Source of the DNA: Minisyncoccota bacterium
GTDB lineage: Bacteria > Patescibacteriota > Minisyncoccia > Phycocordibacterales > UBA9973
DNA length: 64,000 bases
Assembly (NCBI GenBank): GCA_041657885.1
Contig: JBBABB010000002.1
Coordinates: forward strand, 25,483-89,482
Reading direction: 5' to 3'
Positions 1,288 through 60,711 of this stretch are shown in pieces; the first letter of the stretch is position 1; each line of letters starts with the position of its first letter. Under the pieces are notes generated by a model that ran no database searches, was not told the DNA's origin, and saw only the letters and a list, made by a program, of their open reading frames with translations. The position numbers were made by a program, and so were the translations under genes.

Positions 1288-1293
1288 AGAACT

Positions 1294-1337
1294 CTTCCTC
1301 CCCTGCTAAGGGTAGGTATCCAAAGGACGGAGGGGTT
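1294..1337. repeat. GC-rich element, family A half-copy (cTTCCTCCCCTGCTAAGGGtAGGTaTCCAAAGGACGGAGGGGTt).
   Basis: Related copies lie at 24076-24127 (reverse complement, inside cca) and 59572-59666 (full palindromic copy). Confidence 0.7.
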
Positions 1338-4300
1338 ATTGTTCTTTTATAATTAGAGTGATAACTTTTGTTACAACAGTTTTCTCTTTTGAACCTGAAG
1401 TATTTGAACATGTAAGGATGTAAGTAGTTGTTACGATTGGAGATACTATACGAGTACCTTGTTTTGTTCCCCCCGTATCAAATCCAGTACCAGTACAAGA
1501 ATCAGCTAGAGGTGAATCCCATGCGAGAGTTGATGACCTTCCTTCAAAGATTGTAGATGGATTTGCTTCAAATATAGTAGTATCACTTGGAGCATCTATT
1601 ACGCATTTTGCTGGTAGTGGTAATAGTTGCCAGTGTGTAGTAGGAGCACAGCCTGCTGTCACTGATAATGTTTTCAATGACAAAGCCCCGCTATATAAGG
1701 TGAGTATTTTCTCAACACCATAAACCAGAGAAAACGTTGCAGTTCCTGAAACTGCTGTCGTTGAAGGGACTATAGGACTAGTTCCATAACTTGCATCCAC
1801 TCTAGAATTACCAATTTTGTTTGTTACAGCCCAATCTAATTGAGCATCATTACAACTACTATTTCCTTCTGTAATTGAGCAACCACCCGAAGAAAGAGTT
1901 CCACTTGGAGTGACGCATTTACTCCCATCCCAAAATGTTTGAGGGGTGTCAGTACAGTCCGCATTAACTGTTTCTCTCTTTAATTCTACACCATTGTGAT
2001 AAAGATAAAATATTCTTCCTCCGCTAACTGATGTGTTTCCAACATTATAATTTACTGCGCCTGCGTTTGTTGATGAAACTCCTGTTCCTCCACCTCCGAC
2101 AATCGTATTACTAGGTTCTGTCGTAACAGCAGAAACAGAATTTACCGGATAAATTGTATTCCAACTTATATTGACAGGGCAACTACTTTCACCTTCACCT
2201 ATTTTACAACTAAGCGGATTAATCGTTAGTGTTCCCGACGGAGGATTACATATACCGTTTCCTAGAGTTGTATTTACCGGACACTCCGTATTTACCGTAA
2301 TCAAACCGGAAGTTCCTACCGCTGTTGTCGTCGTTGTATTTTGACATCGGATATAGTAACCGTAGGCACCAATTCCATTTGGAGAAGTATAAGTTTTTGT
2401 ATTGATTACATCTTTAGTTGCGGAAGTATATGCGGTTAAATCTGTTTGATTATTATCTAACAGTTTACATTGAACTAAACCTGAGTTTGTCGTCGGAGTG
2501 TAAGTGAAAGAAACATTTGTATTTGGAGTTGTATTGTAAGTTAGTGGAGAAGCAGTGACAGAGACAGTGACAGAGGTACAAGTTCCGGCAATAATTACTG
2601 AACCTGCTACACAAGTTGTACATGTTGGAGGGTTGGTTGCTCCATTTGCACAAGCAGTTGGTGTAAATGTAGCACTGATTGTATGATTGGCTGTGATGTT
2701 AGAAAATGTATATGAATTAGCAACAGTGATAGCACTTCCATCAACTGTTAGTGAAGCTATAGAATAATTAGTAATAGGAGTAATAGTATATATTTGATTA
2801 GAACCATATGCAACACTTGTTACGCCTGTTGGTGTTACTGTTCCATTTGCCCCTGATGAAGCTGTGATTGTTGGTCTAACTCGACAAGCTCCAGAAACAA
2901 AGTCACTACCTGTTGCACACGCCGTATTCACCGTAATCAAACCAGAAGTCCCTACCGCTGTTGTCGTTGTATTTTGACATCGAATATAGTAACCGTAGGC
3001 ACCAATTCCATTTGGAGAAGCATAAGTTTTTGTATTGACTACATCTTTAGTTGCGGAAGCATATGCGGTTAAATCTGCTTGATTATTATCTAACAGTTTA
3101 CATTGAACTAAACCTGAGTTTGTCGTCGGAGTGTAAGTGAAAGAAACATTTGTATTTGGAGTTGTATTGTAAGTTGTTGGAGAAGCAGTGACAGAGACAG
3201 TGACAGAGGTACATATTCCACCTATTATTGCAGAACCTGGCGGACAAGTTGTACACGTTGGATAGTTTGATGCTCCGTTTGAACAAATAAGCGAACAACC
3301 ATATATATTGCTAGGTCCAGTAGCATTATAATTAGTATCTGTAGCTGTTGTACATCCATACTTTGGGGCAGAACAAGTCGTTACTGTTCCACAAGTCCAT
3401 TTCCAGAGAAGTGAAGTATCAACAGGAGAACTTGAATTGAGCGTTCCAATTGTACAGGCACTTGTTCCAGTTGGTTCAGGATTTTGTGGGGTAGAACCAC
3501 TCCCGGGACCACAAGAATCAACAGGAACTGGAACATTGGTCCATGAGCTACAGTTATCGCCTTCATTCGATTCTGTAATCACCCCGCCACCCGCCGCTGA
3601 AGTCTTGTCGGCACAAACTCTGATTGAATACGTTCCAGCAGAACTAAATATATGACTAACACTTATAGTATTTGTTCCACTTGCAGCAAGAGTTGTCATT
3701 GAAGTAGATGTTTTGTCGGTAATAGTTCCTCCACCGTTGGCCGATGATGCAACTTGGAAGAAATTACTAAAGCTTGCACCTGTTGAAGCATTACCATTGT
3801 TTGTAATTGTTGAAGTGAAAGTTTGAGCAACGTTTATGTAAGCAGAAGATGGTGTTGGAGCTGAAGCTGTGAGATTAGGAGCAGGGCATGCTGGAGTTGT
3901 GAATGAGGCAGGAGTAACTGTCCATCCCGTTCCAGTTGTATTCGTCGCACAACCATACACATAGTATATAGTACTTGGAGTTAACCCCGTTTTAGACATT
4001 GTATATACCCCAGTTGTTCTACCTCCTTGGTCTACACAAGTTCCTGGTGAACCAATAGTAACAGAAGTCCCGCGGGCAGAAAGAGTGGCAGGAACACCTA
4101 AAGATGTAACATTTGCCCCAACTGTTGCGCTATTACAAGTTACAGAAGTTGCAGTTGGACTTGTGACAGTTGGAATAACTCCGACAGGTGCACATACTGA
4201 TCCATTCCAAGATGTAGCTACCGGAGTTTGAGAACAGCTAACAGTAATCGGTAAACTAGCAAGTATATTATCAACAGAAGTTCCATTATTTTCTCCATCA

Positions 4301-5859
4301 ACTTTATTTTTAGAAGTAAGAGTCACTGTTCCACTAGTCCCCCCTACAGAAATAGCACTTCCACTAAATGTTACATTGGTGTTACTACCAGAATTCCCAG
4401 AAACGACAGAAGTTCCTCCCGTTAAAGTAGTCGTTACCCCAGATTTTGGATTTGTTGTCCCCCAATTCATCGGAATATTACAACTTCCTTGTCCCGAAGA
4501 AATTGTACAGGCAGGTGAATACGTCGCAGCTAGAGTTCCAGATTGAGCCAATACATTTTGTATTGCACTTTTTGTAGTAGGAGAAGAAGAATTAGTACAA
4601 TCAAGCTGAAAATCGTTACTGTTGTTTTGTAGGCTTGAGACATTTTTTGGCTGGGGACTAAGATTATTATAAAATGTACCATATGTAGTACCATCAGTAT
4701 TATTTTTTAATATACAACCTCCAGAAGTAAGACCACTAACATTAACCACTAAATATGCCGTACCAATACCACTAGAGTCAGAACTACTTTTTTTAACTAA
4801 ATTTTTACTAGGATTATCTTTTTTTGTAAGTGTAACAGTCACAGTTTGAGAAATTAAATTAAACGTACCAATACATCTCACTGTTCTATTCATTGTAACC
4901 TGTCCATCGTTACAATCAGCATCATAAACCCAAGAACAGCCACTAGGACCTGAGCATGATAAACCAGTCCACCCAGCAAATGTTGAACCTGAACTTGGAG
5001 TAGCTGTAATATAGGCAGTTCGATTTAATAAATAATTCCCCGATCCGGTGAAAGACCCCGTGCCAGTTCCAGCAGATTCAGTTGAAAGTGCGTAGACATT
5101 GGAATCACAATTCATCCCATTCCATAAGGTACCAGAAGTACAAGAAGCCGTTGCCGAATCTGAAGATAACTGTACTCCGTTATAGAAAAGACGAAAGCTT
5201 CTAGTGGCTGTGCGATATTGATTAGTATCATCACCAACAATAGTTATAGGGTAAGTAGTACTGCCTGAAGTCAATGATGTTGGAGCTATTACATCAGTAT
5301 TCCAAGGAGTTGTTACAACTCTAGAAATTGCATTAGCAATAGGATTTGCTACACTCCAATTTATTTGGGAATTACAACTATTATATCCTGCCTGAACAGG
5401 ACAATCATTGGCATTTAAAACACCTGAGGGATTAGGCCCACCACCACCGATAGTAACAGTTGCTGACGCTGCAACTGAAGTATATCCAGACCTACTACAA
5501 GTTACAGTATAAGTTGTGGTTTGAGTAGGATTATAGACGACAGAACCAGAGGGAGTTGCTGCTTCAGCTTCTTTTATCCCTAATAAACTCGCAAACTTTT
5601 GTAGAAATGTTGATGGTACAAATGGTAATGGTAAAGTATTATTAATTCCTATAGGAACTCCTCCAGCATTAACAGTAATCGCACAAGTAGTGGCAATCGT
5701 TGATGACCAAGTAAGAGTTACAGGATTCCCTGATGCAACTGAAGTAGGAGATACACTGGCTTGAACGGTAATTCCAGTAAGAGCAGAAGCATTATTTGCA
5801 AAAAATAATGAACCGACCAAAATAATACTTAACACAAAAATTTTTGATAGATTTTTCAT
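1336..5859 (-). CDS. Giant secreted Ser/Thr/Gly-rich surface protein (1507 aa). It carries a CARDB-like module and an internal tandem duplication of about 110 aa.
   Basis: Signal peptide MKNLSKIFVLSIILVGSLFFANNASA. Motif STGASFSNFFQ ... YSIRVCADKTSAAGGGVITESNEGDNCSSW is shared with the proteins at 9320-11965 and 49670-52753. The C-terminal Ig-like module is homologous to that of 9320-11965. Confidence 0.85.
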   Translation of the reverse strand: MKNLSKIFVLSIILVGSLFFANNASALTGITVQASVSPTSVASGNPVTLTWSSTIATTCAITVNAGGVPIGINNTLPLPFVPSTFLQKFASLLGIKEAEAATPSGSVVYNPTQTTTYTVTCSRSGYTSVAASATVTIGGGGPNPSGVLNANDCPVQAGYNSCNSQINWSVANPIANAISRVVTTPWNTDVIAPTSLTSGSTTYPITIVGDDTNQYRTATRSFRLFYNGVQLSSDSATASCTSGTLWNGMNCDSNVYALSTESAGTGTGSFTGSGNYLLNRTAYITATPSSGSTFAGWTGLSCSGPSGCSWVYDADCNDGQVTMNRTVRCIGTFNLISQTVTVTLTKKDNPSKNLVKKSSSDSSGIGTAYLVVNVSGLTSGGCILKNNTDGTTYGTFYNNLSPQPKNVSSLQNNSNDFQLDCTNSSSPTTKSAIQNVLAQSGTLAATYSPACTISSGQGSCNIPMNWGTTNPKSGVTTTLTGGTSVVSGNSGSNTNVTFSGSAISVGGTSGTVTLTSKNKVDGENNGTSVDNILASLPITVSCSQTPVATSWNGSVCAPVGVIPTVTSPTATSVTCNSATVGANVTSLGVPATLSARGTSVTIGSPGTCVDQGGRTTGVYTMSKTGLTPSTIYYVYGCATNTTGTGWTVTPASFTTPACPAPNLTASAPTPSSAYINVAQTFTSTITNNGNASTGASFSNFFQVASSANGGGTITDKTSTSMTTLAASGTNTISVSHIFSSAGTYSIRVCADKTSAAGGGVITESNEGDNCSSWTNVPVPVDSCGPGSGSTPQNPEPTGTSACTIGTLNSSSPVDTSLLWKWTCGTVTTCSAPKYGCTTATDTNYNATGPSNIYGCSLICSNGASNYPTCTTCPPGSAIIGGICTSVTVSVTASPTTYNTTPNTNVSFTYTPTTNSGLVQCKLLDNNQADLTAYASATKDVVNTKTYASPNGIGAYGYYIRCQNTTTTAVGTSGLITVNTACATGSDFVSGACRVRPTITASSGANGTVTPTGVTSVAYGSNQIYTITPITNYSIASLTVDGSAITVANSYTFSNITANHTISATFTPTACANGATNPPTCTTCVAGSVIIAGTCTSVTVSVTASPLTYNTTPNTNVSFTYTPTTNSGLVQCKLLDNNQTDLTAYTSATKDVINTKTYTSPNGIGAYGYYIRCQNTTTTTAVGTSGLITVNTECPVNTTLGNGICNPPSGTLTINPLSCKIGEGESSCPVNISWNTIYPVNSVSAVTTEPSNTIVGGGGTGVSSTNAGAVNYNVGNTSVSGGRIFYLYHNGVELKRETVNADCTDTPQTFWDGSKCVTPSGTLSSGGCSITEGNSSCNDAQLDWAVTNKIGNSRVDASYGTSPIVPSTTAVSGTATFSLVYGVEKILTLYSGALSLKTLSVTAGCAPTTHWQLLPLPAKCVIDAPSDTTIFEANPSTIFEGRSSTLAWDSPLADSCTGTGFDTGGTKQGTRIVSPIVTTTYILTCSNTSGSKEKTVVTKVITLIIKEQ

Positions 5860-7030: not shown

Positions 7031-7128
7031 ATTTATCCCCACACCTATATTTCCATCAAAAATATATAACAGCAGGGTATTTTTACTAAAAAAGCAGAAT
7101 GATGGGAATATGGGTGTGGGGATTTATC
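7031..7128. repeat. P-family MITE-like element. TIRs atttatCCCCACACCTATATTTCCATC / GATGGGAATATGGGTGTGGGGatttatc.
   Basis: The inverted pair is visible. The inner sequence aaaaagcagaatgatgggaatat recurs in the copy at 20539-20683. Confidence 0.8.
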
Positions 7129-7207
7129 AAGATAAAATTAAACAAATCCGAACAATATGCCTTTGTACTAATTATCTAAGTAATTAAGCATCATGTCAAG
7201 GAGTTTT

Positions 7208-7350
7208 ACCCCCACACCCACTTTTTCATTGCTTTAATATTGTGCCATTAAAATATTCAGAAATATATAAAATATCTTTATAAATCAAGTATAAATAATA
7301 ATATTCCTAAAAAATAAAGCACAATGATGAAAAAGTAGGTGTGGGGGTTT
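7208..7350. repeat. P-family MITE-like element. TIRs CCCCCACACCCACTTTTTCAT / ATGAAAAAGTAGGTGTGGGGG with an AT-rich core of about 100 bp.
   Basis: A perfect inverted repeat of about 21 bp. Confidence 0.8.
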
Positions 7351-7360
7351 ATGCACTTTT

Positions 7361-7527
7361 TATCCCCACACCTATATTTTTATAGATTTTCATCTTTTAA
7401 ATAAAAAACTACTTAATTGGTATTTCTAATAAATTATCGCGTAAAAATAGACATTTTGTATTCAAAATAATAAAAATATAGGTGTGGGGATTTATCCCAC
7501 CTTGCCACCTATATTTTTATTGCAGGC
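7361..7527. repeat. P-family element (tatCCCCACACCTATATTTTtata ... AAAAATATAGGTGTGGGGATTTATC) plus an adjacent partial inverted fragment ccaCCTATATTTTTATTGCAGGC.
   Basis: Inverted TIRs are present. The 3' fragment shares TTTTTATTGCAGGC with the copy at 1209-1287. Confidence 0.75.
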
Positions 7528-7771
7528 TCCTTTTTATCCTAATTTTAAGTTGAAATAATGCCCTGCCGTCCTTTTTTAGAGACGATTCTCTTTTCCTTGC
7601 ATCACTCTCATCAAAATATGATTCATAATATCTAAGTTCAAAAGGACGACGACTTTTAGTGGAAAAAACTTTACCATTATTATGATCCGAGAGCCTGCGT
7701 CGTAAATCATTTGTTGAGCCAATGTAAATATTATTGTCTTTTTTACTTTTTAAAATATATAAGTAGAACAT
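7517..7771 (-). CDS. GIY-YIG nuclease-superfamily small protein (YhbQ/UPF0213-like, 84 aa).
   Basis: N-terminal motif YLYILKSKKDNNIYIGSTNDLRRRLSDHN is a classic GIY-YIG. The gene is flanked on both sides by same-orientation copies of the P-family TIR. Confidence 0.8.
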   Translation of the reverse strand: MFYLYILKSKKDNNIYIGSTNDLRRRLSDHNNGKVFSTKSRRPFELRYYESYFDESDARKRESSLKKDGRALFQLKIRIKRSLQ

Positions 7772-7800
7772 ATATTTATATTATATGATTTATGACTATA

Positions 7801-7826
7801 AAAATATAGGTGTGGGGATTTATCCA
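7801..7826. repeat. Solo P-family TIR (AAAATATAGGTGTGGGGATTTATCC). It contains a perfect DnaA-box-like nonamer TTATCCACA.
   Basis: Identical to the right TIR at 7473-7497. Confidence 0.7.
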
Positions 7827-11965: not shown

Positions 11966-12121
11966 ATTTAATAAATTATTAATAATAAACTAACTACTTA
12001 CAATTATATCATCTCCATTGACTAATTAAAAGCATTGCGGTAACATTACCTATGTAAGTCCGTTCTCGAACCGGGCTTTTATTTTTAGAAAAATAAGGAG
12101 CAAGGCGACTATATTTTTCTT

Positions 12122-12171
12122 ACCCCCACACCTACTTTGGGATTCAATTATCAAAGTAGGTGTGGGGATGG
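12122..12171. repeat. Short P-family hairpin (ACCCCCACACCTACTTTG ... CAAAGTAGGTGTGGGGAT) in the divergent promoter / 5' leader region of nusA.
   Basis: A 17-bp inverted repeat with the same CCCCACACCTA core as the other P elements. Confidence 0.75.
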
Positions 12172-20521: not shown

Positions 20522-20538
20522 AATAATGTAATTCGGGG

Positions 20539-20683
20539 CTTGCCCCCACACCTATATTCCCATAGCTTTTATTCTGTTAAGCAAAATTCCTAATCATTTC
20601 ATATTTTTGATTGAATTATAGAGTTATAACCTTTTTTTATTGAAAAAGCAGAATAATGGGAATATAGGTGTGGGGGCTTGTAT
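20539..20683. repeat. P-family MITE-like element. TIRs cttgCCCCCACACCTATATTCCCAT / ATGGGAATATAGGTGTGGGGGcttg.
   Basis: A perfect inverted repeat of about 25 bp. Internal sequence is homologous to the copy at 7031-7128. Confidence 0.85.
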
Positions 20684-22800: not shown

Positions 22801-23217
22801 CTACAATATTATATTATCCACAACCTTTACTCTCGCTTTTCTGTTGTCCAAATCTAGATAGACCACCAAAAGGTCAAATTGCCAATCAACATACCCCAAT
22901 CTTTTGCTTATAAGATAGGTCTCTACTACCCTTCTCAACCTTCTCATTTTCATTGGATGCATATTTTCCTCTGACCGTCCTGCACCATTCTCCAAAACTT
23001 CTTTTTGTGGATAAACATAATCTAAATTTGAAACACTTTTTGATTTAACTTCAATAAAATATCTTTTATCATTTTTTTGAGCAATAATATCAATTTCTCC
23101 CCATTTCTTTGTATAATTTCTTTCTAATATAGAAAAGCCATGTTTAATGAGAAACTTGCAGGCTACTCCTTCACCCAACTCACCTATTTTTTGAGAATTT
23201 GAGGTAAAATTTTTCAT
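22801..23217 (-). CDS. yraN: YraN-family (UPF0102) endonuclease.
   Basis: GELGEGVACKFLIKHGFSILERN ... GEIDIIAQKNDKRYFIEVKSK. Confidence 0.85.
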   Translation of the reverse strand: MKNFTSNSQKIGELGEGVACKFLIKHGFSILERNYTKKWGEIDIIAQKNDKRYFIEVKSKSVSNLDYVYPQKEVLENGAGRSEENMHPMKMRRLRRVVETYLISKRLGYVDWQFDLLVVYLDLDNRKARVKVVDNIIL

Positions 23218-23847: not shown

Positions 23848-25407
23848 ATGCAAACAAACAATTTTAAAATCCCCAAATATGTTACACATGTAACATCCAC
23901 TCTCGAAAAAGCCGGTTTCGAGGCTTTTCTAGTTGGTGGGTGTGTTCGTGATCTAATTATGAGTAGAGAACCGAAGGATTGGGATATTACAACTAATGCC
24001 AAACCAGAAGAGATAATCCCTCTATTTGAAAAGACTATATATGAAAATAAATTTGGAACTGTCGGAGTAGTTCTCCCCCTTACCCCTCCGGCTTCCAGCC
24101 ACCTCCCCTTAGCAGGGGAGGAAAAAACCATAGTAGAAGTTACGCCATACCGAACTGAGGCAAAATATAGTGATTTTAGGCATCCAGATGAAGTTAAATT
24201 CAGCGACAACATAGAAGACGACTTAAAAAGACGTGATTTTACAATAAATGCAATGGCTTACGCGCCCGCCATAGCTTCAGCAAAGGAAGGTAATTTTTCT
24301 AAAGGACATCTCATTGACCTTTATAAAGGACAAGAGGATATAAAGGACAAAGTAATTAGGACAGTGGGAGCCCCAAAAGACAGGTTCAATGAAGATGCTC
24401 TTCGCATGCTTAGAGCAGTTAGATTGTCAACTCAACTCAATTTTGCAGTTTCATATGAAACCATGCAGGCCATTTCTGACGGCGCAGAACTGATTAAAAA
24501 CATATCTTTTGAAAGAATCCGCGATGAATTTACTAAGATTATAATGTCTAACGACCCTGTGGTGGGAATTGGCCTTCTTTCTAAATTAGGACTCCTAAAA
24601 CACATTATTCCTGAATTAGAAGAGGGAGTTGGCTGTGAGCAAAAGGGTGAGCATATATATGACGTTTGGGAGCACTTACTTCACGCCCTTGATCATGCTG
24701 CCCAAAAGGGGTGGTCTCTGGAAGTTAGACTCTCGGCCTTGTTTCATGACATTGGCAAACCCAGGTCTAGAAGAAAGGGGGAGAAAAAGGCCTATACTTT
24801 CTATGGGCATGAAGTAATTGGCTCACGAATGACCCAAAAGATTATGGAGCGCCTAAAATACCCAAAGGAGACAACGGAAATGGTCATTCGTTTCACGAGA
24901 AACCATATGTTCTTCTCTGATACTGAGAAAATAACCCTTTCGGCCGTCCGTCGTATCGTTCAACATGTTGGACCCTCCGACGCTAAAGCTATGGCGGGCA
25001 AAGAAGAAAATCATCCTATCTGGGACCTTATGAAAGTTCGTGAATGTGATAGGGTAGGGATGAAAAAGAAAGAAGCCCCTTATCGCCTAAGGAAATACCA
25101 CGCTATGATTGAAGAAGTTCTTCATGACCCGATATCTGTCGGCCAACTTGCAATTGATGGGAAAATAATGATAGAGGAGTTACACATGAAACCCGGACCA
25201 AGAATGGGGTGGATTTTGAATGCACTTCTTGAGGAAGTTCTGGATGACCCAACTAAAAATACGGCTGAACATCTATCCGAACTTGTAAAATCTCTAGATA
25301 TGCTCGGCGACGCGGAACTTAAAACGCTAGGGGAGAGAGGAAAAGAGAAAAAAGATGAACTTGAGAAAGAAGAAGTAGAAAAGCTCCACAAAAAGCACGG
25401 AGTATAA
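23848..25407 (+). CDS. cca: CCA-adding tRNA nucleotidyltransferase with a C-terminal HD domain.
   Basis: GGCVRDLIMSREPKDWDITT head motif, RRDFTINAMAY, HD motif LFHDIGKP. Contains an in-frame GC-rich family A insertion (..LPLTPPASSHLPLAGEE..). Confidence 0.9.
   Translation: MQTNNFKIPKYVTHVTSTLEKAGFEAFLVGGCVRDLIMSREPKDWDITTNAKPEEIIPLFEKTIYENKFGTVGVVLPLTPPASSHLPLAGEEKTIVEVTPYRTEAKYSDFRHPDEVKFSDNIEDDLKRRDFTINAMAYAPAIASAKEGNFSKGHLIDLYKGQEDIKDKVIRTVGAPKDRFNEDALRMLRAVRLSTQLNFAVSYETMQAISDGAELIKNISFERIRDEFTKIIMSNDPVVGIGLLSKLGLLKHIIPELEEGVGCEQKGEHIYDVWEHLLHALDHAAQKGWSLEVRLSALFHDIGKPRSRRKGEKKAYTFYGHEVIGSRMTQKIMERLKYPKETTEMVIRFTRNHMFFSDTEKITLSAVRRIVQHVGPSDAKAMAGKEENHPIWDLMKVRECDRVGMKKKEAPYRLRKYHAMIEEVLHDPISVGQLAIDGKIMIEELHMKPGPRMGWILNALLEEVLDDPTKNTAEHLSELVKSLDMLGDAELKTLGERGKEKKDELEKEEVEKLHKKHGV
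24076..24127. repeat. GC-rich element, family A copy (reverse complement), in-frame within cca.
   Basis: Reverse complement ggttttTTCCTCCCCTGCTAAGGGGAGGTgGCtgGAAgCCGGAGGGGTaagggg matches 1294-1337 and 59572-59666. Confidence 0.75.
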
Positions 25408-27398: not shown

Positions 27399-28214
27399 TT
27401 AAAACTCTATCATTATCGGACAGTGGTCGGAGCCATAATAATCGGACATTGTTTTGAAACTTTTTATTTTGGAAACAAAAGATTGATTTGTGAAAAAATA
27501 ATCTAACCGCCAGCCGACGTTTCTGTCGCGAGCACGAGTTTTAATATCCCAGTAAGTGTAGACATCTTTTTTATTTGGATAAAAATTGCGAAATATATCT
27601 ACCCAACCATTATTCACGACTTCATCAAGCCAAGCGCGCTCTATTGGCAAGAAGCCTGTATTATCAGCATTCTCTTTTGGTCGAGCTAAATCAATTTCTT
27701 TGTGGGCAGTATTTATATCGCCACAAAAAATTACACTGCGTCCCGCTGTAGCTTTATGCGAAAGCGGATTATTTCCATTTTTTAATTTATTTATAAATTC
27801 TAAAAATGCATCATAAAATTCAAGTTTGTAATTGAGTCGTTCTTCTCCTCCTCCGCTGTTAGGAAAGTAGCAGTTTATTAAAACAAAATCAGGGTAGTAA
27901 GCAACAAGTGTTCGTCCCTCATCATCAAATTTTGGAATTCCAAAACCATATTCAACTTTTTCTGGTTCGGTTTTTGAATATATTACTACACCACTGTATC
28001 CTTTTCTCCCTTTTGAATATGAAAAGTATGAATGATATCCTTTTAAATTCCTAGATTTCTCATCGAGTTGTTCTGGTTCGCATTTGGTTTCTTGAAGACA
28101 AACAATATCTGGCCCGCCTGCGCAGGCAGGATTATTAAAAGCAAACAAGGGAATAAAATTCTCTTGTTTTATTGTCGCCCGTAAGCCGTTCGTGTTCCAA
28201 CTGATAATCTTCAT
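27399..28214 (-). CDS. xth: Exodeoxyribonuclease III / AP endonuclease.
   Basis: MKIISWNTNGLRA, LQETK, and the C-terminal WRLDYFF..SDHCP signature. Confidence 0.9.
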   Translation of the reverse strand: MKIISWNTNGLRATIKQENFIPLFAFNNPACAGGPDIVCLQETKCEPEQLDEKSRNLKGYHSYFSYSKGRKGYSGVVIYSKTEPEKVEYGFGIPKFDDEGRTLVAYYPDFVLINCYFPNSGGGEERLNYKLEFYDAFLEFINKLKNGNNPLSHKATAGRSVIFCGDINTAHKEIDLARPKENADNTGFLPIERAWLDEVVNNGWVDIFRNFYPNKKDVYTYWDIKTRARDRNVGWRLDYFFTNQSFVSKIKSFKTMSDYYGSDHCPIMIEF

Positions 28215-42434: not shown

Positions 42435-44456
42435 ATGCGATATCTTGATTCTTTGAATGAAAAACAAAAAGAGGCAGTTCTTTATACGGATGGGCCTCTT
42501 TTGATTGTAGCTGGGGCTGGAGCAGGGAAGACGAAAACATTGACTCACCGAATAATTCACCTTATCCACAAAGGAGTAAACCCGAGCTCAATATTGGCAG
42601 TAACCTTTACAAATAAGGCCGCAAAGGAAATGCGGGATAGGGTTATGGGATTGTTGGAAGATAGGGAGCATGGAGTTAGTGCGCCCGAGCGAAGCGAGGG
42701 CGCCCCATTCGTCTCCACCTTTCACTCACTTGGGGTTCATATTATAAAAGAAAATTCTCATTTGATAGGTTTGAATAAATATTTCACGATTATAGACGAG
42801 AGCGATGCGCTGAGCATCATCAAAAGCATAATGAAAGAACGCGACATAGATACAAAACAACATGAGCCAAGAAAAATAAAATCAATTATTTCAAAGTCAA
42901 AAGGTGACTTTATTACAGTAGATACATTTAGTGCCAATGCAAAAAGTGCTGTGCAAAGTATCGTCGCAATGATTTGGCGAGATTATGAAGCAAGATTGAA
43001 AAAAGAAAAAGCATTGGACTTCGACGATTTACTTCTTGAGACAGTTTTGATTTTAAAAAAATATCCGGAGATAAAACAAAAATATCAAGAGGAGTGGAAA
43101 TATCTTCATATAGATGAGTACCAAGATACGAACGAAGTTCAATATGAAATGACAAAACTTTTAGTCGGAAAAGAAGAAAATATTTGTGTTACGGGAGATT
43201 GCGATCAATGTGTGTATTCATGGCGAGGTGCTAGCATCAAAAACATGTTGCACTTTGAAAAAGATTATCCAAACGCCAAGATAGTAATACTCGAACAAAA
43301 TTACCGCTCAACAAAAAATATTATTGAAGCGGCAAATAGTGTTATTGAGAAAAATGTTTATCGCGTGCCTAAAATTTTATTTACGGAAAATGTGAAAGGG
43401 GAGGAGATTACGATTTGCGAAGCTTATGATGAACAAAGTGAAGCAATATTTGTGGTAAAAAAGATAGACGAATTTTTAAAAGAAAATAATCCCGAAGATA
43501 TCGCGATACTTTATCGTGCAAACTTTCAATCAAGAGTTTTAGAAGAGGCATTACTTGATAAACAAATTCCTTATCAAGTACTTGGAGTAAAATTCTTTGA
43601 ACGAAAAGAAATTAAAGATTTGCTCGCATACATTCGCCTCTCTTACAATAAAGAAAGTTTGTCGGACATAAAAAGAATAATAAATATTCCAACTCGTGGA
43701 ATAGGGAAGACCACAATCGCAAAACTTTTTGCGGGGACTACAAATGATTTACCAAAAGGAATGCAAATAAAAATTGGAAAATTCTATGAGCTTGTTGACG
43801 GCATACGATTGTATATTGACTCTCATAAACCATCTGAATCTGTGAAATACGTGATAGAGAAAAGTGGACTAAAAGAGGAGCTTTCTCACGGCACGAGCGA
43901 CGAACAAGAACGCTTGGAAAATATGATGGAATTGGTAACTTTAGCTATAAAATATGACAATATTCCAGACGGTGAAGGAATGGAAAAACTACTTGAAGAT
44001 GCATCTCTTGCAAGCGACCAAGACACTCTGATGCACCCCATTAAAAACCGCGAGGGATCACAAGGACCCTCTGTTTCTAACGGGACAGGTAAGGGAAATG
44101 GCGTGAAGTTAATGACAGTGCATGCATCGAAAGGTCTTGAGTTTAAATATGTTTTCATCACGGGGCTTGAACAAGATTTATTCCCACATACAAAAGGAAA
44201 TTCAAAAACAAAAGAAGACAACGAGGAAGAGAGAAGATTATTTTACGTGGCCGTCACTCGAGCAAGGGAAAAATTATTTTTATCTTATGCATCACTCCGA
44301 ACAATTTTTGGAATGAAACAAGTGAACAGCCCAAGCGAATTCATTTACGATATTCCCGCACACTTAACAATTTTTGAACAAGCATATTCTTCAAGGGGAC
44401 CTGCCCGCCCTCACAAAGATTCGGGAGCAGGCGGGGAGAAAGTGGTGTATTTATAG
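42435..44456 (+). CDS. pcrA: UvrD/PcrA-family ATP-dependent DNA helicase.
   Basis: Motif I AGAGAGKTKTLTHR, Ia TFTNKAAKEM, II LHIDEYQDTN, plus later motifs. The C-terminus carries a family D insertion (..ARPHKDSGAGGEKVVYL). Confidence 0.92.
   Translation: MRYLDSLNEKQKEAVLYTDGPLLIVAGAGAGKTKTLTHRIIHLIHKGVNPSSILAVTFTNKAAKEMRDRVMGLLEDREHGVSAPERSEGAPFVSTFHSLGVHIIKENSHLIGLNKYFTIIDESDALSIIKSIMKERDIDTKQHEPRKIKSIISKSKGDFITVDTFSANAKSAVQSIVAMIWRDYEARLKKEKALDFDDLLLETVLILKKYPEIKQKYQEEWKYLHIDEYQDTNEVQYEMTKLLVGKEENICVTGDCDQCVYSWRGASIKNMLHFEKDYPNAKIVILEQNYRSTKNIIEAANSVIEKNVYRVPKILFTENVKGEEITICEAYDEQSEAIFVVKKIDEFLKENNPEDIAILYRANFQSRVLEEALLDKQIPYQVLGVKFFERKEIKDLLAYIRLSYNKESLSDIKRIINIPTRGIGKTTIAKLFAGTTNDLPKGMQIKIGKFYELVDGIRLYIDSHKPSESVKYVIEKSGLKEELSHGTSDEQERLENMMELVTLAIKYDNIPDGEGMEKLLEDASLASDQDTLMHPIKNREGSQGPSVSNGTGKGNGVKLMTVHASKGLEFKYVFITGLEQDLFPHTKGNSKTKEDNEEERRLFYVAVTRAREKLFLSYASLRTIFGMKQVNSPSEFIYDIPAHLTIFEQAYSSRGPARPHKDSGAGGEKVVYL
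44398..44441. repeat. Family D GC-rich hairpin element, in-frame at the helicase C-terminus.
   Basis: gaCCTGCCCGCCCTCACaaagATTCGGGAGCAGGCGGGGAgaa, about 90% identical to 16291-16331 in tig. Confidence 0.75.
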
Positions 44457-44457
44457 A

Positions 44458-44568
44458 TTCCCCTCGTTGAGGGGTGCCCGTAGGGTGGGGTGGATTTAAT
44501 TAATTAACCCATCCACCCCGTCCTCTGGTTACAGAGTCCACCCCTCAAGAGGGGAATTAATACAGAAA
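44458..44568. repeat. Family C composite palindrome of about 110 bp, intergenic between the helicase and rsmA.
   Basis: ATTCCCCTCgTTGAGGGGTGCCCGTAGGGTGGGGTGGAT ... ATCCACCCCGTCC ... CACCCCTCAAGAGGGGAAT. A shorter copy lies at 56986-57051. Confidence 0.8.
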
Positions 44569-44589: not shown

Positions 44590-45477
44590 ATGATTCATAA
44601 AGCGAAAAAATCAATGGGGCAGAATTTTCTTAAGTCCAAACCGGCACTCAATATGATGTGCGAGGCAGGAGAGGTAAATAACTCCGATACTATTCTTGAA
44701 ATTGGTCCGGGGAAAGGAGTACTGACAGAAAAACTTTTAGAAAAGGCGGGGAAGGTGATAGCGATTGAAAAAGACCGAGAACTATTTGAATTTTTAAAAG
44801 AAAAATTTGGAGAAGAAATAAAAAATAAAAAATTAATTTTATTAAATGAAGATATATTACAGTTTGAGTTCCCCTCCCCTTTGGGGAGGGCTGGGGAGGG
44901 GTTCCTAATTAAGAACCTCCCCTCATTCCCCTCCAAAGGAGGGGAGGAAATCAATTCTTATAAAATCATCGCCAACATTCCGTATAATATTACCGGCTCA
45001 ATTTTAAAAAAGTTTCTATCTTGCGAGAATCAACCAGAAAGAATGGTTCTCTTAGTGCAAAAAGAAGTCGCGGAAAGAATTGTCACTCGCGATGGCAAAG
45101 AAAGTATTTTGTCACTAAGCGTGAAGGCATACGGGACTCCGAAATACATAATGAAGGTTCATAAGCGATTTTTCTCACCAGCTCCTAAAGTAGATTCGGC
45201 TATTATTGCAATCAATAATATTTCTAGACAGAATTTTCATACAAAAAATGAAGAAAATGTGTTTTTTGGCTTGGTTAAAACAGGTTTTGCTCACAAAAGA
45301 AAAGTTCTTCGTAAAAATCTGGAAACTAAGGAAGTCGGACCCTCCTCGTCGGCGGGCATGCTTCCAAAGATTGATGAGATTTTTGAAAAATTAGGAATTA
45401 ATCCGAATGCTCGCGCCGAGGATATCAAGTTCGAAAAATGGCTTCTGATTTCTCGTCTTTTATCCACAGATATCTAG
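44590..45477 (+). CDS. rsmA: 16S rRNA (adenine1518/1519-N6)-dimethyltransferase RsmA/KsgA, with an in-frame insertion of about 27 aa.
   Basis: MGQNFLKS, EIGPGKGVLT, NIPYNITG. The family B palindrome encodes EFPSPLGRAGEGFLIKNLPSFPSKGGEEI just before the NIPYNI motif. Confidence 0.9.
   Translation: MIHKAKKSMGQNFLKSKPALNMMCEAGEVNNSDTILEIGPGKGVLTEKLLEKAGKVIAIEKDRELFEFLKEKFGEEIKNKKLILLNEDILQFEFPSPLGRAGEGFLIKNLPSFPSKGGEEINSYKIIANIPYNITGSILKKFLSCENQPERMVLLVQKEVAERIVTRDGKESILSLSVKAYGTPKYIMKVHKRFFSPAPKVDSAIIAINNISRQNFHTKNEENVFFGLVKTGFAHKRKVLRKNLETKEVGPSSSAGMLPKIDEIFEKLGINPNARAEDIKFEKWLLISRLLSTDI
44868..44949. repeat. Family B GC-rich palindromic element of about 82 bp, in-frame inside rsmA.
   Basis: TTCCCCTCCCCTTTGGGGAGGGCTGGGGAGGGGTTCCTAATT | AATTAAGAACCTCCCCTCATTCCCCTCCAAAGGAGGGGAGGAA. 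An intergenic reverse-complement copy lies at 56449-56540. Confidence 0.85.
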
Positions 45478-56449: not shown

Positions 56450-56540
56450 TTCCTCCCCTCCTTACCAAGGAGGGGAATGAGGGGAGGTTCTTAATTAATT
56501 AGGAACCCCTCCCCAGCCCTCCCCAAAGGGAAGGGAATCC
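56449..56540. repeat. Family B GC-rich palindromic element, intergenic copy (reverse complement of the rsmA copy).
   Basis: TTCCTCCCCTCCTTaccAAGGAGGGGAATGAGGGGAGGTTCTTAATTAATTAGGAACCCCTCCCCAGCCCTCCCCAAAGGGaAGGGAA. Confidence 0.85.
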
Positions 56541-56976: not shown

Positions 56977-56985
56977 TAATGTGTG

Positions 56986-57051
56986 AATTCCCCTCTTGAG
57001 GGGTGCCTGAAAGGCGGGGTGGATGAATTTGAGGGGAATTAAAATTCTTTC
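56986..57051. repeat. Family C element, shortened copy (AATTCCCCTCTTGAGGGGTGCCTGAAAGGCGGGGTGGAT...GAGGGGAATT).
   Basis: The left arm matches 44458-44497. Outer inverted ends are retained. Confidence 0.75.
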
Positions 57052-57734: not shown

Positions 57735-59570
57735 ATGTCAATATTTTCAAATTTATTAGGAAAAAAGAATAACATCTCTAAAAACAAGAGCATGGTTATG
57801 CCTGTTTTACCAAGTGAAATATATAAAGCGGCAGCACTTGAACTTCAGGATATTATCGCTCCATCAGCTCTTCAGATAACTCCAAGGTCACTAAACCTCG
57901 GAGACAAAATAGCAAGAACATTCTTTGTAATATCATATCCACGGTATCTTAGTGATAATTGGTTCTCTCCAATTATAAATTTGGATAAGGTTTTTGATGT
58001 ATCTATTTTTATCCACCCTATTGACACAGCAGAAATATTGAGAACATTTCAGAAGAAAGTAGCCGAGGTTCAGAGTCAAATCTCTGTTCGTGAATCAAGG
58101 GGGCTAGTGCGAGACCCAATGCTTGATACTGCATACCAAGACCTTGAAAATTTACGAGATAATCTTATGCAAGCTCAAGAGAAAATGTTTAATGTTGGTC
58201 TTTATATCACAGTTTATGCTGAGAATGATAACGATTTATTTAAAATTGAAAATGAAATTAAATCTCTTCTTGAATCAAAACTCATCTATCTAAAGCCAGC
58301 ACTATTTCAGCAGGCTGAAGGATTTAAAAGTGTTATTCCTTTAGGAACAGACGTGCTAGGTATTCACCAAAAACTCAACACTGAACCACTTTCAAGTATT
58401 TTCCCATTCGTCTCTTTTGACTTAACTGATGATAAAGGAATATTGTATGGGGTCAATCGCCACAATTCTAGCTTGATTCTTTTTGATAGATTTTCCCTCC
58501 CAAACTACAACTCCATAATTTTTGCAACTGCTGGAGCTGGTAAATCTTATGCCGCTAAATTAGAAATTATTCGTACTTTAATGTTTGACACAGAAGTTAT
58601 CGTCATAGACCCAGAGCGTGAATACGAATATCTAGCTGAAGCAGTAGGAGGTAGATATTTTAACATCGCTCTTTCTTCCGACCACCATATAAATCCTTTT
58701 GAATTACCTATTCCCACAGGAGATGAAACAGGGGCAGATGTTCTCCGCTCAAATACTATAAATCTTGTAGGGTTGTTCCGCATAATGCTTGGAGGATTAA
58801 CACCAGAAGAAGATTCTATTATAGATAGTGCTATCACAGAGACATATGCCTTAAAAGATATTACCGCGGAGTCAGACTTTAGAAATATTGAGGTTCCATT
58901 ATTAACGGACTTTGAGATGGTTCTCTCTGGAATGGAGGGAAGCGATTCGCTTGTCCAGCGCTTGACCAAATATACTCACGGGTCTTGGGCATCATTTTTA
59001 AACCAACCATCAAACGTTGATATCAACCGAAAATTTATAGTTTTCTCTGTCAGAGATATGGAGGATGAACTAAAACCTGTAGCAATGTATATTGTTACTC
59101 ATTATATTTGGAATTCTATTCGTAAAAATATTAGAAAAAGATTACTTGTAGTAGATGAGGCCTGGTGGATGATGAAATCAGAAGATACTGCATCGTTCCT
59201 CTATTCTATTGCTAAAAGAGGACGAAAATACTGGCTAGGACTTGCAACTATTACTCAAGACGTAGGGGATTTTATGAAAAGCGCTTATGGCATACCTATT
59301 ATTACTAACTCTTCTATTCAATTACTTCTAAAACAGTCCCCAGCAACAATAGATGTCTTACAAAAAACATTCAGTCTTACAGAGGAAGAGAAATATTTGC
59401 TGTTAGAGGCAAATGTTGGAGAAGGTATCTTTTTTGTTGGCCTAAAACACGTTGCAGTTAAAACAATCGCTTCTTATACCGAAGACCAAATTATCACATC
59501 TGACCCTTCACAAATTTTGGCTATCAAAAAAGCAAAAGGGGAATTATTGGCGGCGGGGAGTAGTAATTAG
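57735..59570 (+). CDS. VirB4/TraC/ConE-like T4SS ATPase, C-terminal motor portion (611 aa).
   Basis: Walker A FATAGAGKSYAAK, Walker B LLVVDEAWWMM. Walker A sits about residue 265, so about 200 N-terminal residues appear to be supplied by the preceding ORF. Confidence 0.85.
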   Translation: MSIFSNLLGKKNNISKNKSMVMPVLPSEIYKAAALELQDIIAPSALQITPRSLNLGDKIARTFFVISYPRYLSDNWFSPIINLDKVFDVSIFIHPIDTAEILRTFQKKVAEVQSQISVRESRGLVRDPMLDTAYQDLENLRDNLMQAQEKMFNVGLYITVYAENDNDLFKIENEIKSLLESKLIYLKPALFQQAEGFKSVIPLGTDVLGIHQKLNTEPLSSIFPFVSFDLTDDKGILYGVNRHNSSLILFDRFSLPNYNSIIFATAGAGKSYAAKLEIIRTLMFDTEVIVIDPEREYEYLAEAVGGRYFNIALSSDHHINPFELPIPTGDETGADVLRSNTINLVGLFRIMLGGLTPEEDSIIDSAITETYALKDITAESDFRNIEVPLLTDFEMVLSGMEGSDSLVQRLTKYTHGSWASFLNQPSNVDINRKFIVFSVRDMEDELKPVAMYIVTHYIWNSIRKNIRKRLLVVDEAWWMMKSEDTASFLYSIAKRGRKYWLGLATITQDVGDFMKSAYGIPIITNSSIQLLLKQSPATIDVLQKTFSLTEEEKYLLLEANVGEGIFFVGLKHVAVKTIASYTEDQIITSDPSQILAIKKAKGELLAAGSSN

Positions 59571-59571
59571 A

Positions 59572-59666
59572 TACACCCCCTCTGCTTTTAGCATCTCCCC
59601 CTTCGCAGGGGGCGAGGAATTCTTCCTCCCTTGCGAAGGGGAGGTGTCCAAAGGACGGAGGGGTGA
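59572..59666. repeat. Family A GC-rich element, full two-armed palindromic copy of about 95 bp.
   Basis: ACACCCCCTCTGCTTTTAGCATCTCCCCCTTCGCAGGGGGCGAGG-aattc-TTCCTCCCTTGCGAAGGGGAGGTGTCCAAAGGACGGAGGGGTG. Confidence 0.8.
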
Positions 59667-59730
59667 ATCAAATTATAGGTTGTTAGAGAAGCAGGATTAT
59701 TATATAATATATAAAGTGAAATTTACAAAA

Positions 59731-60711
59731 ATGAAAATCTTTCTCGTCGGATTTTTTATTCTGGGGATAATAAATATCCCTTATATTTCTTCAGCTGAAA
59801 TGCAAATTGAAGTGCAGGAAGGAGAAATAAACGTGGAAACAAGTCCAAACAATCCACAACCATACCAAGATGTAACAATCAATCTATCTAGTTATGCAAC
59901 CGATTTAAACAAAGCAACAATAATGTGGCAAGCGGAATCGGGAGTTGTTCTATCTGGGATAGGTAAAACGAGTTATTCTTTTAAAGCTCTAGGCCCAAAT
60001 ACCATCACTGTTTTTAATATCAGTGTTACCCCAGCAGGCTCTATGAACACAATAAATAAGAGGGTGGTTATTGCTCCATCTGAAATTGAAGTTATGTGGG
60101 AATCTGCTGACGGATATACTCCGCCTTTTTATAGAGGGAAGTCTCTTCCAATTAGTGGTGCAGTGATAAGAGCTGTGGCAATTCCAAATACAAACACAAT
60201 AAAATCTGGTAGTGGAAGTATTACCTATACGTGGAAAAATGGTGACAACACAGTACTTGAAGCTTCTGGATATAATAAAAATGCTTATGTATTTAAAAAT
60301 AGTATGTTTGATGAGAAAAATACGATAACGGTAATCGCTTCGTCAGTCAGTGGGGATTATGGGGCAGAAAACACAATAGATATACCACTCTATCAACCTA
60401 AAATAATTTTTTATAAAAAATCACCAACAGATGGTGTTCTTTATAATAAAGCTCTTGATAAAGAAACTGCTATGCCTGAAGATGAAATGACAATCGTGGG
60501 TGAACCATATTTTTTATCTATCAAAGGGAAAGAAGGTTCTTTTAATTACAACTGGAAAATAAATGGGAGTAGTATACAAACACCAACAAAGAAAACAGAA
60601 TTAACAATAAGGCCAAATTCTCGTGGAGGATATGCTACTATAAGTTTAGTAATTGAAAATATAAATGAATTATTCCAAAGTGTTAGTAATCAGCTAAAAA
60701 TCAATCTTTAA
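59731..60711 (+). CDS. Secreted beta-rich protein with Ig-like modules (about 326 aa from ATG 59731).
   Basis: Signal peptide MKIFLVGFFILGIINIPYISSA. The ORF-track start at 59452 is a spurious extension through the GC-rich repeat. Confidence 0.6.
   Translation: MKIFLVGFFILGIINIPYISSAEMQIEVQEGEINVETSPNNPQPYQDVTINLSSYATDLNKATIMWQAESGVVLSGIGKTSYSFKALGPNTITVFNISVTPAGSMNTINKRVVIAPSEIEVMWESADGYTPPFYRGKSLPISGAVIRAVAIPNTNTIKSGSGSITYTWKNGDNTVLEASGYNKNAYVFKNSMFDEKNTITVIASSVSGDYGAENTIDIPLYQPKIIFYKKSPTDGVLYNKALDKETAMPEDEMTIVGEPYFLSIKGKEGSFNYNWKINGSSIQTPTKKTELTIRPNSRGGYATISLVIENINELFQSVSNQLKINL

Follow-up and report, generated by a model that had tools for sequence, protein, structure and literature searches.

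A GC-rich structured DNA repeat read in frame through the CCA-adding enzyme gene of a Minisyncoccota bacterium, with a DUF559 endonuclease as its putative partner

Rickettsia palindromic elements (RPEs), as outlined in a secondary account (Ogata et al. 2000, via PMC10969869), are small palindromic sequences that are read in frame in many housekeeping genes of a reduced genome and for which no transposase of their own is known. Repetitive extragenic palindromic (REP) sequences, their hairpin-forming doublets (REPINs) and the REP-associated tyrosine transposase (RAYT) genes form a second system, in which the repeat is an imperfect palindrome of 20-40 nucleotides (nt) with a GTAG or CGTC head (PMC3116915, PMC5581495, bioRxiv 10.1101/2021.07.10.451892). 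ERIC, BOX and other MITEs (transposable elements of the miniature inverted-repeat type), which carry terminal inverted repeats and target-site duplications and come from known insertion sequence families, are occasionally but rarely fused in frame with genes (PMC10969869). In this work we analysed a 64,000-nt stretch of DNA, here called the window, from a Minisyncoccota bacterium (GCA_041657885.1, contig JBBABB010000002.1, positions 25,483 to 89,482), in which a GC-rich segment termed family A lies inside cca, an essential gene of tRNA maturation that encodes the CCA-adding enzyme. We propose, with a probability of about 0.7, that the cca segment is one unit of a short interspersed DNA repeat that is non-autonomous and defined by its structure, and that a DUF559 protein is its likeliest partner acting in trans. 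The RPEs are the closest known kind of element and the REPIN-RAYT system is the closest organisational analogue.

The cca gene (23848..25407, plus strand) encodes a 519-amino acid (aa) class II CCA-adding enzyme with an HD domain. It matches the Pfam families PolyA_pol, PolyA_pol_RNAbd, HD and tRNA_NucTran2_2 and, by sequence, the Protein Data Bank (PDB) entries 6ibp and 1miv; its best Foldseek matches are CCA-adding enzymes with a probability of 1.0, and a PolyA_pol head with GGxVRD..DxD, RRD and ED..R motifs as invariant columns agrees with class II. The open reading frame (ORF) passes through the family A unit (24079..24126, minus strand) in frame and is read there as ..FGTVGVVLPLTPPASSHLPLAGEEKTIVEVTPYRTE..; the core of the unit at 24082-24123, which is free of stop codons, corresponds to codons 79-92 and to the peptide TPPASSHLPLAGEE. 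On the minus strand the unit reads TTTTT-CCTCCCCT-GCTA-AGGGGAGG-T-GGCT-GGA-AGCC-GGAGGGGT-AAG, and either strand folds into a pair of hairpins (z -2.8 and -3.6). The original prediction of a reverse-complement copy, read in frame between the FGTVGV and EVTPYRTE segments of the head domain, thus stands.

In solved CCA-adding enzymes the insertion site is a tight turn (HGTVLVL-LDGEG-IEVTTFR). An AlphaFold2 model with a mean predicted local distance difference test (pLDDT) score of 85 and a predicted template modelling score of 0.80 was obtained from an input of 93 sequences, which was used in place of a 30-sequence input that gave pLDDT below 50 across the head domain. In this model, strands 72-77 and 93-100 flank a coil of residues 78-92 at the tip of a beta-hairpin in the nucleotidyltransferase head. 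Only four segments have pLDDT below 50, residues 82-90 being one of them, so the insert is predicted to be a loop, as had been anticipated. It was also possible that orthologs shared the segment as a native part of Cca. An intact family A segment is found in only eight of 121 close Cca orthologs from Paceibacterota and a decayed one in two more; the other orthologs, about 110, lack the unit and carry different sequences.

Comparison of the carriers suggests at which level the unit is conserved. Between the window and four related loci (L017, L198, L199 and L200), cca outside the unit is 74-75% identical in nucleotide sequence and 48-52% identical at third positions, and the unit itself is identical at 41 of 42 nt and at 14 of 14 third positions. 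Only one base varies, at the centre of the hairpin-2 loop, and the change is non-synonymous (S/F/Y). Of 41 unit positions compared in the loop region, one differs; of the 61 positions immediately around the unit, a set that includes codons of invariant strands, 14-16 (23-26%) differ (Fisher p 0.001-0.004). Since all 14 synonymous sites are identical, the intact unit is maintained as nucleic acid relative to its immediate flanks, and not as peptide.

All three places at which the family A motif had been reported in the window do carry it. A scan with the 23-nt consensus TTCCTCCCCTGCTAAGGGGAGGT, allowing up to 3 mismatches, matched only 1295-1317 (+), 24101-24123 (-) and 59623-59645 (+), with 0.00 matches expected from 100 shuffles. 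A repeat finder aligned 1289-1336 with 59617-59664 at 90% ungapped identity, and 24082-24126 with each of these two segments at 80-81% complementarity (pairs D20, I4 and I5). The family A segments have a GC content of approximately 60% in a background of approximately 35%. In the window, a covariance model, R1, built from 32 distinct copies, picked out four units of family A together with four more distantly related segments; the family A units score 35.3-70.8 bits, so the copies align significantly by the model as well as by the shuffle test. The highest score is that of the cca unit (70.8 bits, E 1.6e-19). The copy at 1292..1339 (+; 60.0 bits) adjoins the stop codon of a 1507-aa gene (1336..5859, minus strand) and had been described as a half-copy; it is instead a complete single unit, which appears to be decaying through a G-to-T change, so that hairpin 1 reads GGGTAGG and the fold is no better than shuffled sequence (z 0.17). 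The copy on the 3' side of a VirB4-like ATPase gene had been called a full palindrome, which holds in part: it is a head-to-head dimer (59572-59667, fold z -5.3) of two units from different sub-families. Its right arm (59620..59667, plus strand, 68.3 bits) is family A, and its left arm (59572..59619, minus strand, 35.3 bits) belongs to a sister sub-family, TCGCCCCC/GGGGGAGA..AGAGGGGG, with TGCT-aaa-AGCA as hairpin 2. Like the solo unit, the dimer adjoins the stop codon of its neighbour, as had been noted. A long ORF at 59452..60711 that seemed to give a further intragenic case was rejected as an artefact of reading through the stop-free dimer, overlapping the VirB4-like gene; the real gene begins at an ATG at 59733, with a signal peptide.

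When a 22-nt core was scanned over one genome per species, at least 117 loci were found, and comparison of the copies with their flanks gave one architecture for nearly all of them among the matches listed. The family A unit is TTCCTCCCC-TGCKAA-GGGGAGGT, a short variable hairpin and then GGAGGGGT. In order of its parts, a lineage-specific 5' flank is followed by hairpin 1, a C-rich/G-rich stem of 8 bp with a GCGA or GCTA loop (CCTCCCC-T-GCGA/GCTA-A-GGGGAGG), a single T, hairpin 2 and the terminal G-run GGAGGGGT; a unit is 42-48 nt long and a dimer approximately 95 nt. The conserved ends are TTTT-TCCTCCCC and GGAGGGGT-G, and the flanks are TTTT-unit-TGAA in the Candidate Phyla Radiation (CPR) and AAAGC-unit-TTT in Verrucomicrobiota. 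Hosts of the superfamily are Patescibacteria, Verrucomicrobiota, Bacteroidota, Clostridia, Gammaproteobacteria and Planctomycetota.

Hairpin 2 is 9-25 nt long and occurs in at least 70 distinct sequences, and it is its pairing that is conserved. Perfect stems of at least 4 bp are present in 63% of 70 distinct hairpin-2 spacers versus 4% of shuffled spacers. In the 32-copy alignment three of the four pairs have changed on both sides, in 30 cells versus 10.7 expected, a value reached by 0 of 500 shuffles, and 97.7% of the hairpin-2 cells are paired; with the 3' partners slid, the figure is 45-65%. In 124 of 161 cases the terminal G-run mirrors the 3' arm of hairpin 1, and in one a direct copy is present, again among the matches listed. 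The G-run changes along with that arm across sub-families: a GGGGAGG arm is followed by GGAGGGG (102/128), GGGGGAG by GAGGGGG (13/16) and GGGAAGG by GGAAGGG (7/8), and the mirror rule also holds for the sub-family of the left dimer arm in the window. Mirror-repeat purine tracts can form H-DNA or intramolecular purine-purine-pyrimidine (R·R-Y) triplexes. The order of pyrimidine arm, loop, purine arm, loop and mirrored purine arm is the one that a fold-back purine-motif triplex requires, and we infer that the unit could fold in this way; the mirror relation comes from sequence alone, and a G-quadruplex or no higher-order fold is possible as well.

Copies inside genes are a feature of the CPR. 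Judged by the names of its homologs, the window comes from an ultra-small bacterium of this group, in Candidatus Paceibacterota. With an intragenic copy defined by at least 60 open codons on both sides of the unit, 16 of 49 copies in CPR/Patescibacteria are intragenic versus none of 81 in other phyla; 12 of the 16 lie in Pfam-confirmed genes, and in 14 of the 16 the unit is antisense, with its G-rich strand as template (all among the matches listed). CPR genes that are read through a unit, with Pfam domains on both sides or around it, encode FtsK, LigA, an FAD oxidase, Tgt, MnmA, Dus, an M23 peptidase and UvrB. None of the intragenic copies examined has a stop codon in the frame of its host, and the lengths that could be measured (18, 63 and 42 plus 12 nt) are multiples of three. 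A search of a protein database with an 80-aa concatenate of the element-encoded peptide, which as a single peptide is too short for a query, gave 853 candidates sharing words and none at E <= 10.

Two further genes of the window are informative in this respect. A related unit without hairpin 2, together with a partner half, lies in frame in ksgA/rsmA (44868..44934, plus strand; R1 17.6 bits), a gene that matches Pfam RrnaAD; the insert is 63 nt long and is read as PSPLGRAGEGFLIKNLPSFPS. A near-identical inverted twin of 67 nt lies between genes at 56469..56539 (minus strand; alignment A2; R1 14.0 bits), and its extra TAAT would shift the frame and create a TAA stop in ksgA. In an Exo_endo_phos gene (27399..28214, minus strand) the 18-nt hairpin CCTGCCTGCGCAGGCGGG at 28113-28130 adds six codons (ACAGGP), and its site is empty in the orthologs of L198 and L200. 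The open ksgA copy set against its stop-containing twin, together with the empty Exo_endo_phos sites, points to mobility and to a filter on reading frame. Another GC-rich hairpin, GCGCCCGAGCGAAGCGAGGGCGCC at 42677-42719, is in frame in the N-terminal domain of the UvrD helicase (uvrD/pcrA, 42435..44456). The two remaining relatives found by R1 are a distant superfamily member at 56985..57023 (plus strand; 23.4 bits, E 5e-5), TTCCCCTC..GAGGGGT-gcctgaaaggc-GGGGTGGA, and one directly 3' of the uvrD/pcrA stop codon at 44455..44494 (plus strand; 19.0 bits, E 1e-3). A repeat family other than family A, headed by GTAG (AAGTAGGTGTGGGGG) and often arranged in inverted pairs, is present at 1207-1288, 7080-7825, 12120-12157 and 20538-20675; it is REP-like and may have a partner gene of its own.

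The cca loop itself is a site of repeated insertion. From FGTVGV to EVTPYR, the shortest form among the 121 orthologs is NVTHVTEY, and the longest have over 50 additional residues made of recurring modules; the DNA of the loop is dense in small in-frame palindromes, such as TGTTACAcaTGTAACA read as VTHVT and TGTTTCAccTGAAACA read as VSPET, with GC-rich hairpins of several families nested among them. The loop is an insertion hotspot across the whole group. At the same site, L199 reads gttCTCCCCTTGctaagagggagtgcccaaggagcaagggggtcg and then ACCCCTCC.., a full tail-to-tail dimer, and the partner unit is also complete in P0002 and P0012. Because removal of 33 nt from the L199 dimer gives the window-type junction, the CTCCCCCTT upstream of the unit is probably what is left of the partner arm. 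The remnant, gttctccccctt (24070..24081, plus strand; V75-L78), would derive from the 5' arm of an inverted partner unit and differs at 3-4 of 12 positions between carriers.

Several other features of the cca region were observed. In the orthologs of L119-L197 (e.g., L141:345 and L149:6201), loop 1 carries the 16-nt palindromes TGTTACAnnTGTAACA and TGTTTCAnnTGAAACA, read as V[TS]x[EV]T, in one to four copies per gene, and other hairpin elements lie within or beside them as if they were targets. Loop 1 of L193:2005 and L195:6213 carries a widespread hairpin type, ccaCCCTCTCCtgacaGGAGAGGGgctgggggtgagg, which is read as QPPSPDRRGAGGE and resembles family A in its layout of a hairpin plus a G-run. 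A second in-frame module, APAIASAKEG (24262-24291, residues 139-148), is located at the next beta-hairpin tip, after RRDFTINA; this tip is another hotspot, with a minimal loop in 85 of the 121 orthologs and, in some, KGPADG[LI]PVAGRQE-type modules that occur in loop 1 too. Directly upstream of cca, on the opposite strand, lies a UPF0102/YraN-family (endonuclease-like) gene (22801-23217), which has the same position in all relatives examined, including L198-L200.

The candidate for a trans-acting partner came from the neighbourhoods of the units outside cca. In L018, L015 and L084, inverted units bracket a gene of approximately 115 aa that matches Pfam DUF559 (PF04480, E 3e-28 to 6e-36); the arrangement recurs in L040, and the bracketed gene is not a known transposase. 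All 12 DUF559 ORFs in the loci selected by the element, from CPR, Clostridia and Verrucomicrobiota, are 0-102 nt from a core, and sister sub-families occupy the same flanks. When the search was started from the protein, about 40 of 120 DUF559 homologs had element-encoded C-terminal tails (26 by a strict motif, the others by eye). Five homologs with clean ends, taken blind, were all flanked by units, and 13 of the 20 units in these five loci fell within the 12% of sequence adjoining the DUF559 gene. The shortness of DUF559 contigs, considered as a sign of repeats, was dropped because most contigs in the collection are short anyway. The catalytic residues D53, E64, D66 and H70, a D, E-x-D, H core, are invariant in 59 DUF559 sequences, and the only solved relative, 3hrl (E 4e-20), is uncharacterised; DUF559 has been grouped with Vsr and a homing endonuclease in a survey of PD-(D/E)xK enzymes, and the partner is predicted to be a Vsr-like PD-(D/E)xK endonuclease. 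A pilB(T2SSE)-ruvB-DUF559-ruvC-aminoacyl-tRNA synthetase neighbourhood, beside the Holliday-junction machinery, is conserved in Paceibacterota (L201-L205, gene at 2501-2848 in each), and from its position between ruvB and ruvC the gene looks like a vertically inherited host gene. In one metagenome-assembled genome (GCA_035510575.1), a unit-flanked DUF559 gene (L201) occurs together with a family A copy inside mnmA (L032).

Set beside the described systems, family A shares with the RPEs, as far as these are covered in the secondary account, in-frame read-through in unrelated housekeeping ORFs at tolerant surface positions; it is set apart by length and hosts (RPEs are approximately 100-150 bp and confined to Rickettsia), by the two-hairpin plus mirror G-run layout and by the DUF559 association. 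With the REPIN-RAYT system it shares short GC-rich hairpins, often as inverted dimers, that are chromosomal, persistent and without target-site duplications and that flank a single-copy, vertically inherited nuclease-type gene; the inverted dimers are head-to-head in the window and tail-to-tail in cca of L199 and in mnmA of L032 and L099. It differs in that no GTAG or CGTC head was found at a fixed position, that the flanked gene is DUF559 (E 6e-36) and not a Y1/HUH RAYT (no genome-wide RAYT search was made), that about a third of the CPR copies are not extragenic, unlike those of other phyla, and that a mirror-repeat module is added. MITEs resemble it in the in-frame fusion of small repeats with host ORFs and differ in their target-site duplications and in the rarity of such fusions. 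The GC clusters of yeast mitochondria are GC-rich palindromic mini-elements in an AT-rich genome, some of which, including one in var1, lie in frame in coding DNA and vary between strains; they are organellar and eukaryotic, have another sequence and are without such a nuclease gene. In the searchable literature, which covers few subscription journals, we found no paper that links these repeats to CPR or DUF559, nor a description of the unit architecture, its breadth over phyla, the scale of intragenic copies in CPR, the conservation at synonymous sites or the DUF559 association.

We propose the following course of events for cca. The unit would have landed at the beta-hairpin tip of the Cca head, probably as a tail-to-tail inverted dimer, the other half of which was later deleted. 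Because it has no stop in frame and its length is a multiple of three, it is probably transcribed and translated with the gene, adding 14 residues, or 18 if the remnant is counted, as a disordered loop that is tolerated. It would be no neutral passenger, in that the DNA or RNA unit is kept intact with the peptide left free to vary. In gene-dense CPR genomes about a third of the copies are found inside genes. The trans-acting partner would be the host-encoded, single-copy DUF559 endonuclease, flanked by clusters of units as a RAYT gene is by REPINs, and it may spread or maintain them.

A number of observations weigh against this proposal. In a weak neighbour-joining tree the orthologs with the cca insert do not form a monophyletic group, and the same hairpin 2 (ggctgaaagcc) is found in uvrB of L069 and tgt of L112; the identity of the cca units could therefore partly reflect a younger, repeated or recombined acquisition, or conversion by copies elsewhere with this hairpin 2. 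The copies in P0008 and P0055 are decayed, so maintenance is not universal, and a simple history of a single ancient insertion was rejected on the tree together with these decayed copies. An empty site for family A itself was not found, and translation is deduced only from frame, length and the absence of stops. No DUF559 gene is present in the window, in the 80 cca loci or within 1.5 kb of two weak plasmid copies. Because the pilB-ruvB-DUF559-ruvC synteny is shared in Paceibacterota, the five loci reached from the protein are orthologs and do not count as independent. We know of no strand-transfer activity for DUF559, a small nuclease, and its flanks could be just a favoured landing site.

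The alternative that survives best, though we consider it unlikely, is a purely selfish MITE- or RPE-like element moved by a transposase, with an incidental link to DUF559, whose flanks would serve it as a favoured target or as a spacer that tolerates it. The way in which the units are dispersed, filtered by frame and tolerated fits such an element, DUF559 has no known transposition chemistry, clustering at the syntenic Paceibacterota loci could be inherited, and units accumulate at other gene ends too, for example beside ruvC in L202. Against it, the DUF559 association recurs across contexts and phyla (L015 in Clostridia, L040 and L036 in Verrucomicrobiota, L051 beside rplB), and the units around orthologous DUF559 loci differ in sub-family, hairpin 2 and orientation, which indicates turnover and not inheritance. 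None of the loci examined showed a transposase gene next to a unit or between units, and no target-site duplications were detected in 46 CPR and 37 Verrucomicrobiota copies, in which flank identity for k = 2-5 equals the shuffled expectation. The family is chromosomal, not phage- or plasmid-borne: 2.9 million viral contigs contained no exact core, and plasmids and phages gave only three weak plasmid matches and one partial phage match, the two plasmid matches that were inspected being solo and intergenic.

It is also improbable, in our view, that the unit is a host-beneficial cis element, an mRNA or DNA structure that would protect 3' ends, act in termination, pause translation or organise the nucleoid, with the cca copy kept because it is useful. 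The fully conserved synonymous sites with a single varying loop base, the two window copies adjoining stop codons and the strong antisense bias within genes could all be read in this way. Yet most Cca orthologs manage without the unit, some copies have decayed, and the placement of units, in loops and proteins that have nothing in common, looks opportunistic. An intrinsic terminator role was rejected, since terminator scans were at chance level (1-2 calls versus 0.5 +/- 0.8 expected) with no T-run after the units; the only call on a family A-type unit, in the left arm of the dimer, is itself at that level. Only tRNAs passed Rfam 15 in the window, and permissive Rfam scans of both sites gave hairpin-like matches of at most 25 bits against gathering scores of 39-230.

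Removal of the segment before or during translation, as a mini-intron or by translational bypass, so that the protein would lack the insert, is very improbable. The byp elements of mitochondria, like the mitochondrial GC clusters, are superficially similar GC-rich hairpins in an AT-rich genome. A frame filter would be needless under excision or bypass, and yet the intragenic copies are stop-free with lengths in multiples of three and the 4 nt by which the ksgA twin differs are precisely those that would disrupt the frame. That the insert is a native, fast-evolving, low-complexity Cca loop resembling intergenic motifs by chance, as the hypervariability of the loop in all orthologs might suggest, is refuted by the 42-nt match of 60-71 bits to intergenic copies where shuffling gives 0, and by the occurrence of the identical unit in at least 117 loci across phyla and within eight other gene families.

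A more specific form of the partnership with DUF559 is put forward tentatively, as an idea that may well not hold: the units and DUF559 would be another, independent pairing of the REPIN-RAYT kind, with a Vsr-type nuclease in place of a Y1 transposase. The unit, when extruded or single-stranded, would form a hairpin topped by an intramolecular purine-motif triplex in which hairpin 2 serves as the connecting loop; this fold would be recognised by DUF559, whose gene lies between ruvB and ruvC, and nicking by DUF559 at stem mismatches would lead to correction of one arm by the other. Arm-to-arm correction would explain the perfect yet freely covarying hairpins, the frozen synonymous sites in cca and the long persistence of the units. 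The mirror-repeat rule predicts a specific DNA fold that is accessible to oligonucleotide tests, and the DUF559 link offers a testable function for a very large family of uncharacterised nucleases (5,754 close homologs in one search).

For the biology of these organisms, the finding means that a repeat family has colonised core coding sequences of the tiny, gene-dense CPR genomes, among them cca, ligA, ftsK, uvrB, uvrD, tgt, mnmA, dus and ksgA. In annotation, alignment and structure prediction of CPR proteins, otherwise unexplained inserts and loops of low pLDDT may be repeat units. The repeat family offers a source of innovation in protein loops. If the proposed partnership is real, the DUF559-unit system would be a major generator of loop length variation in CPR core proteins.

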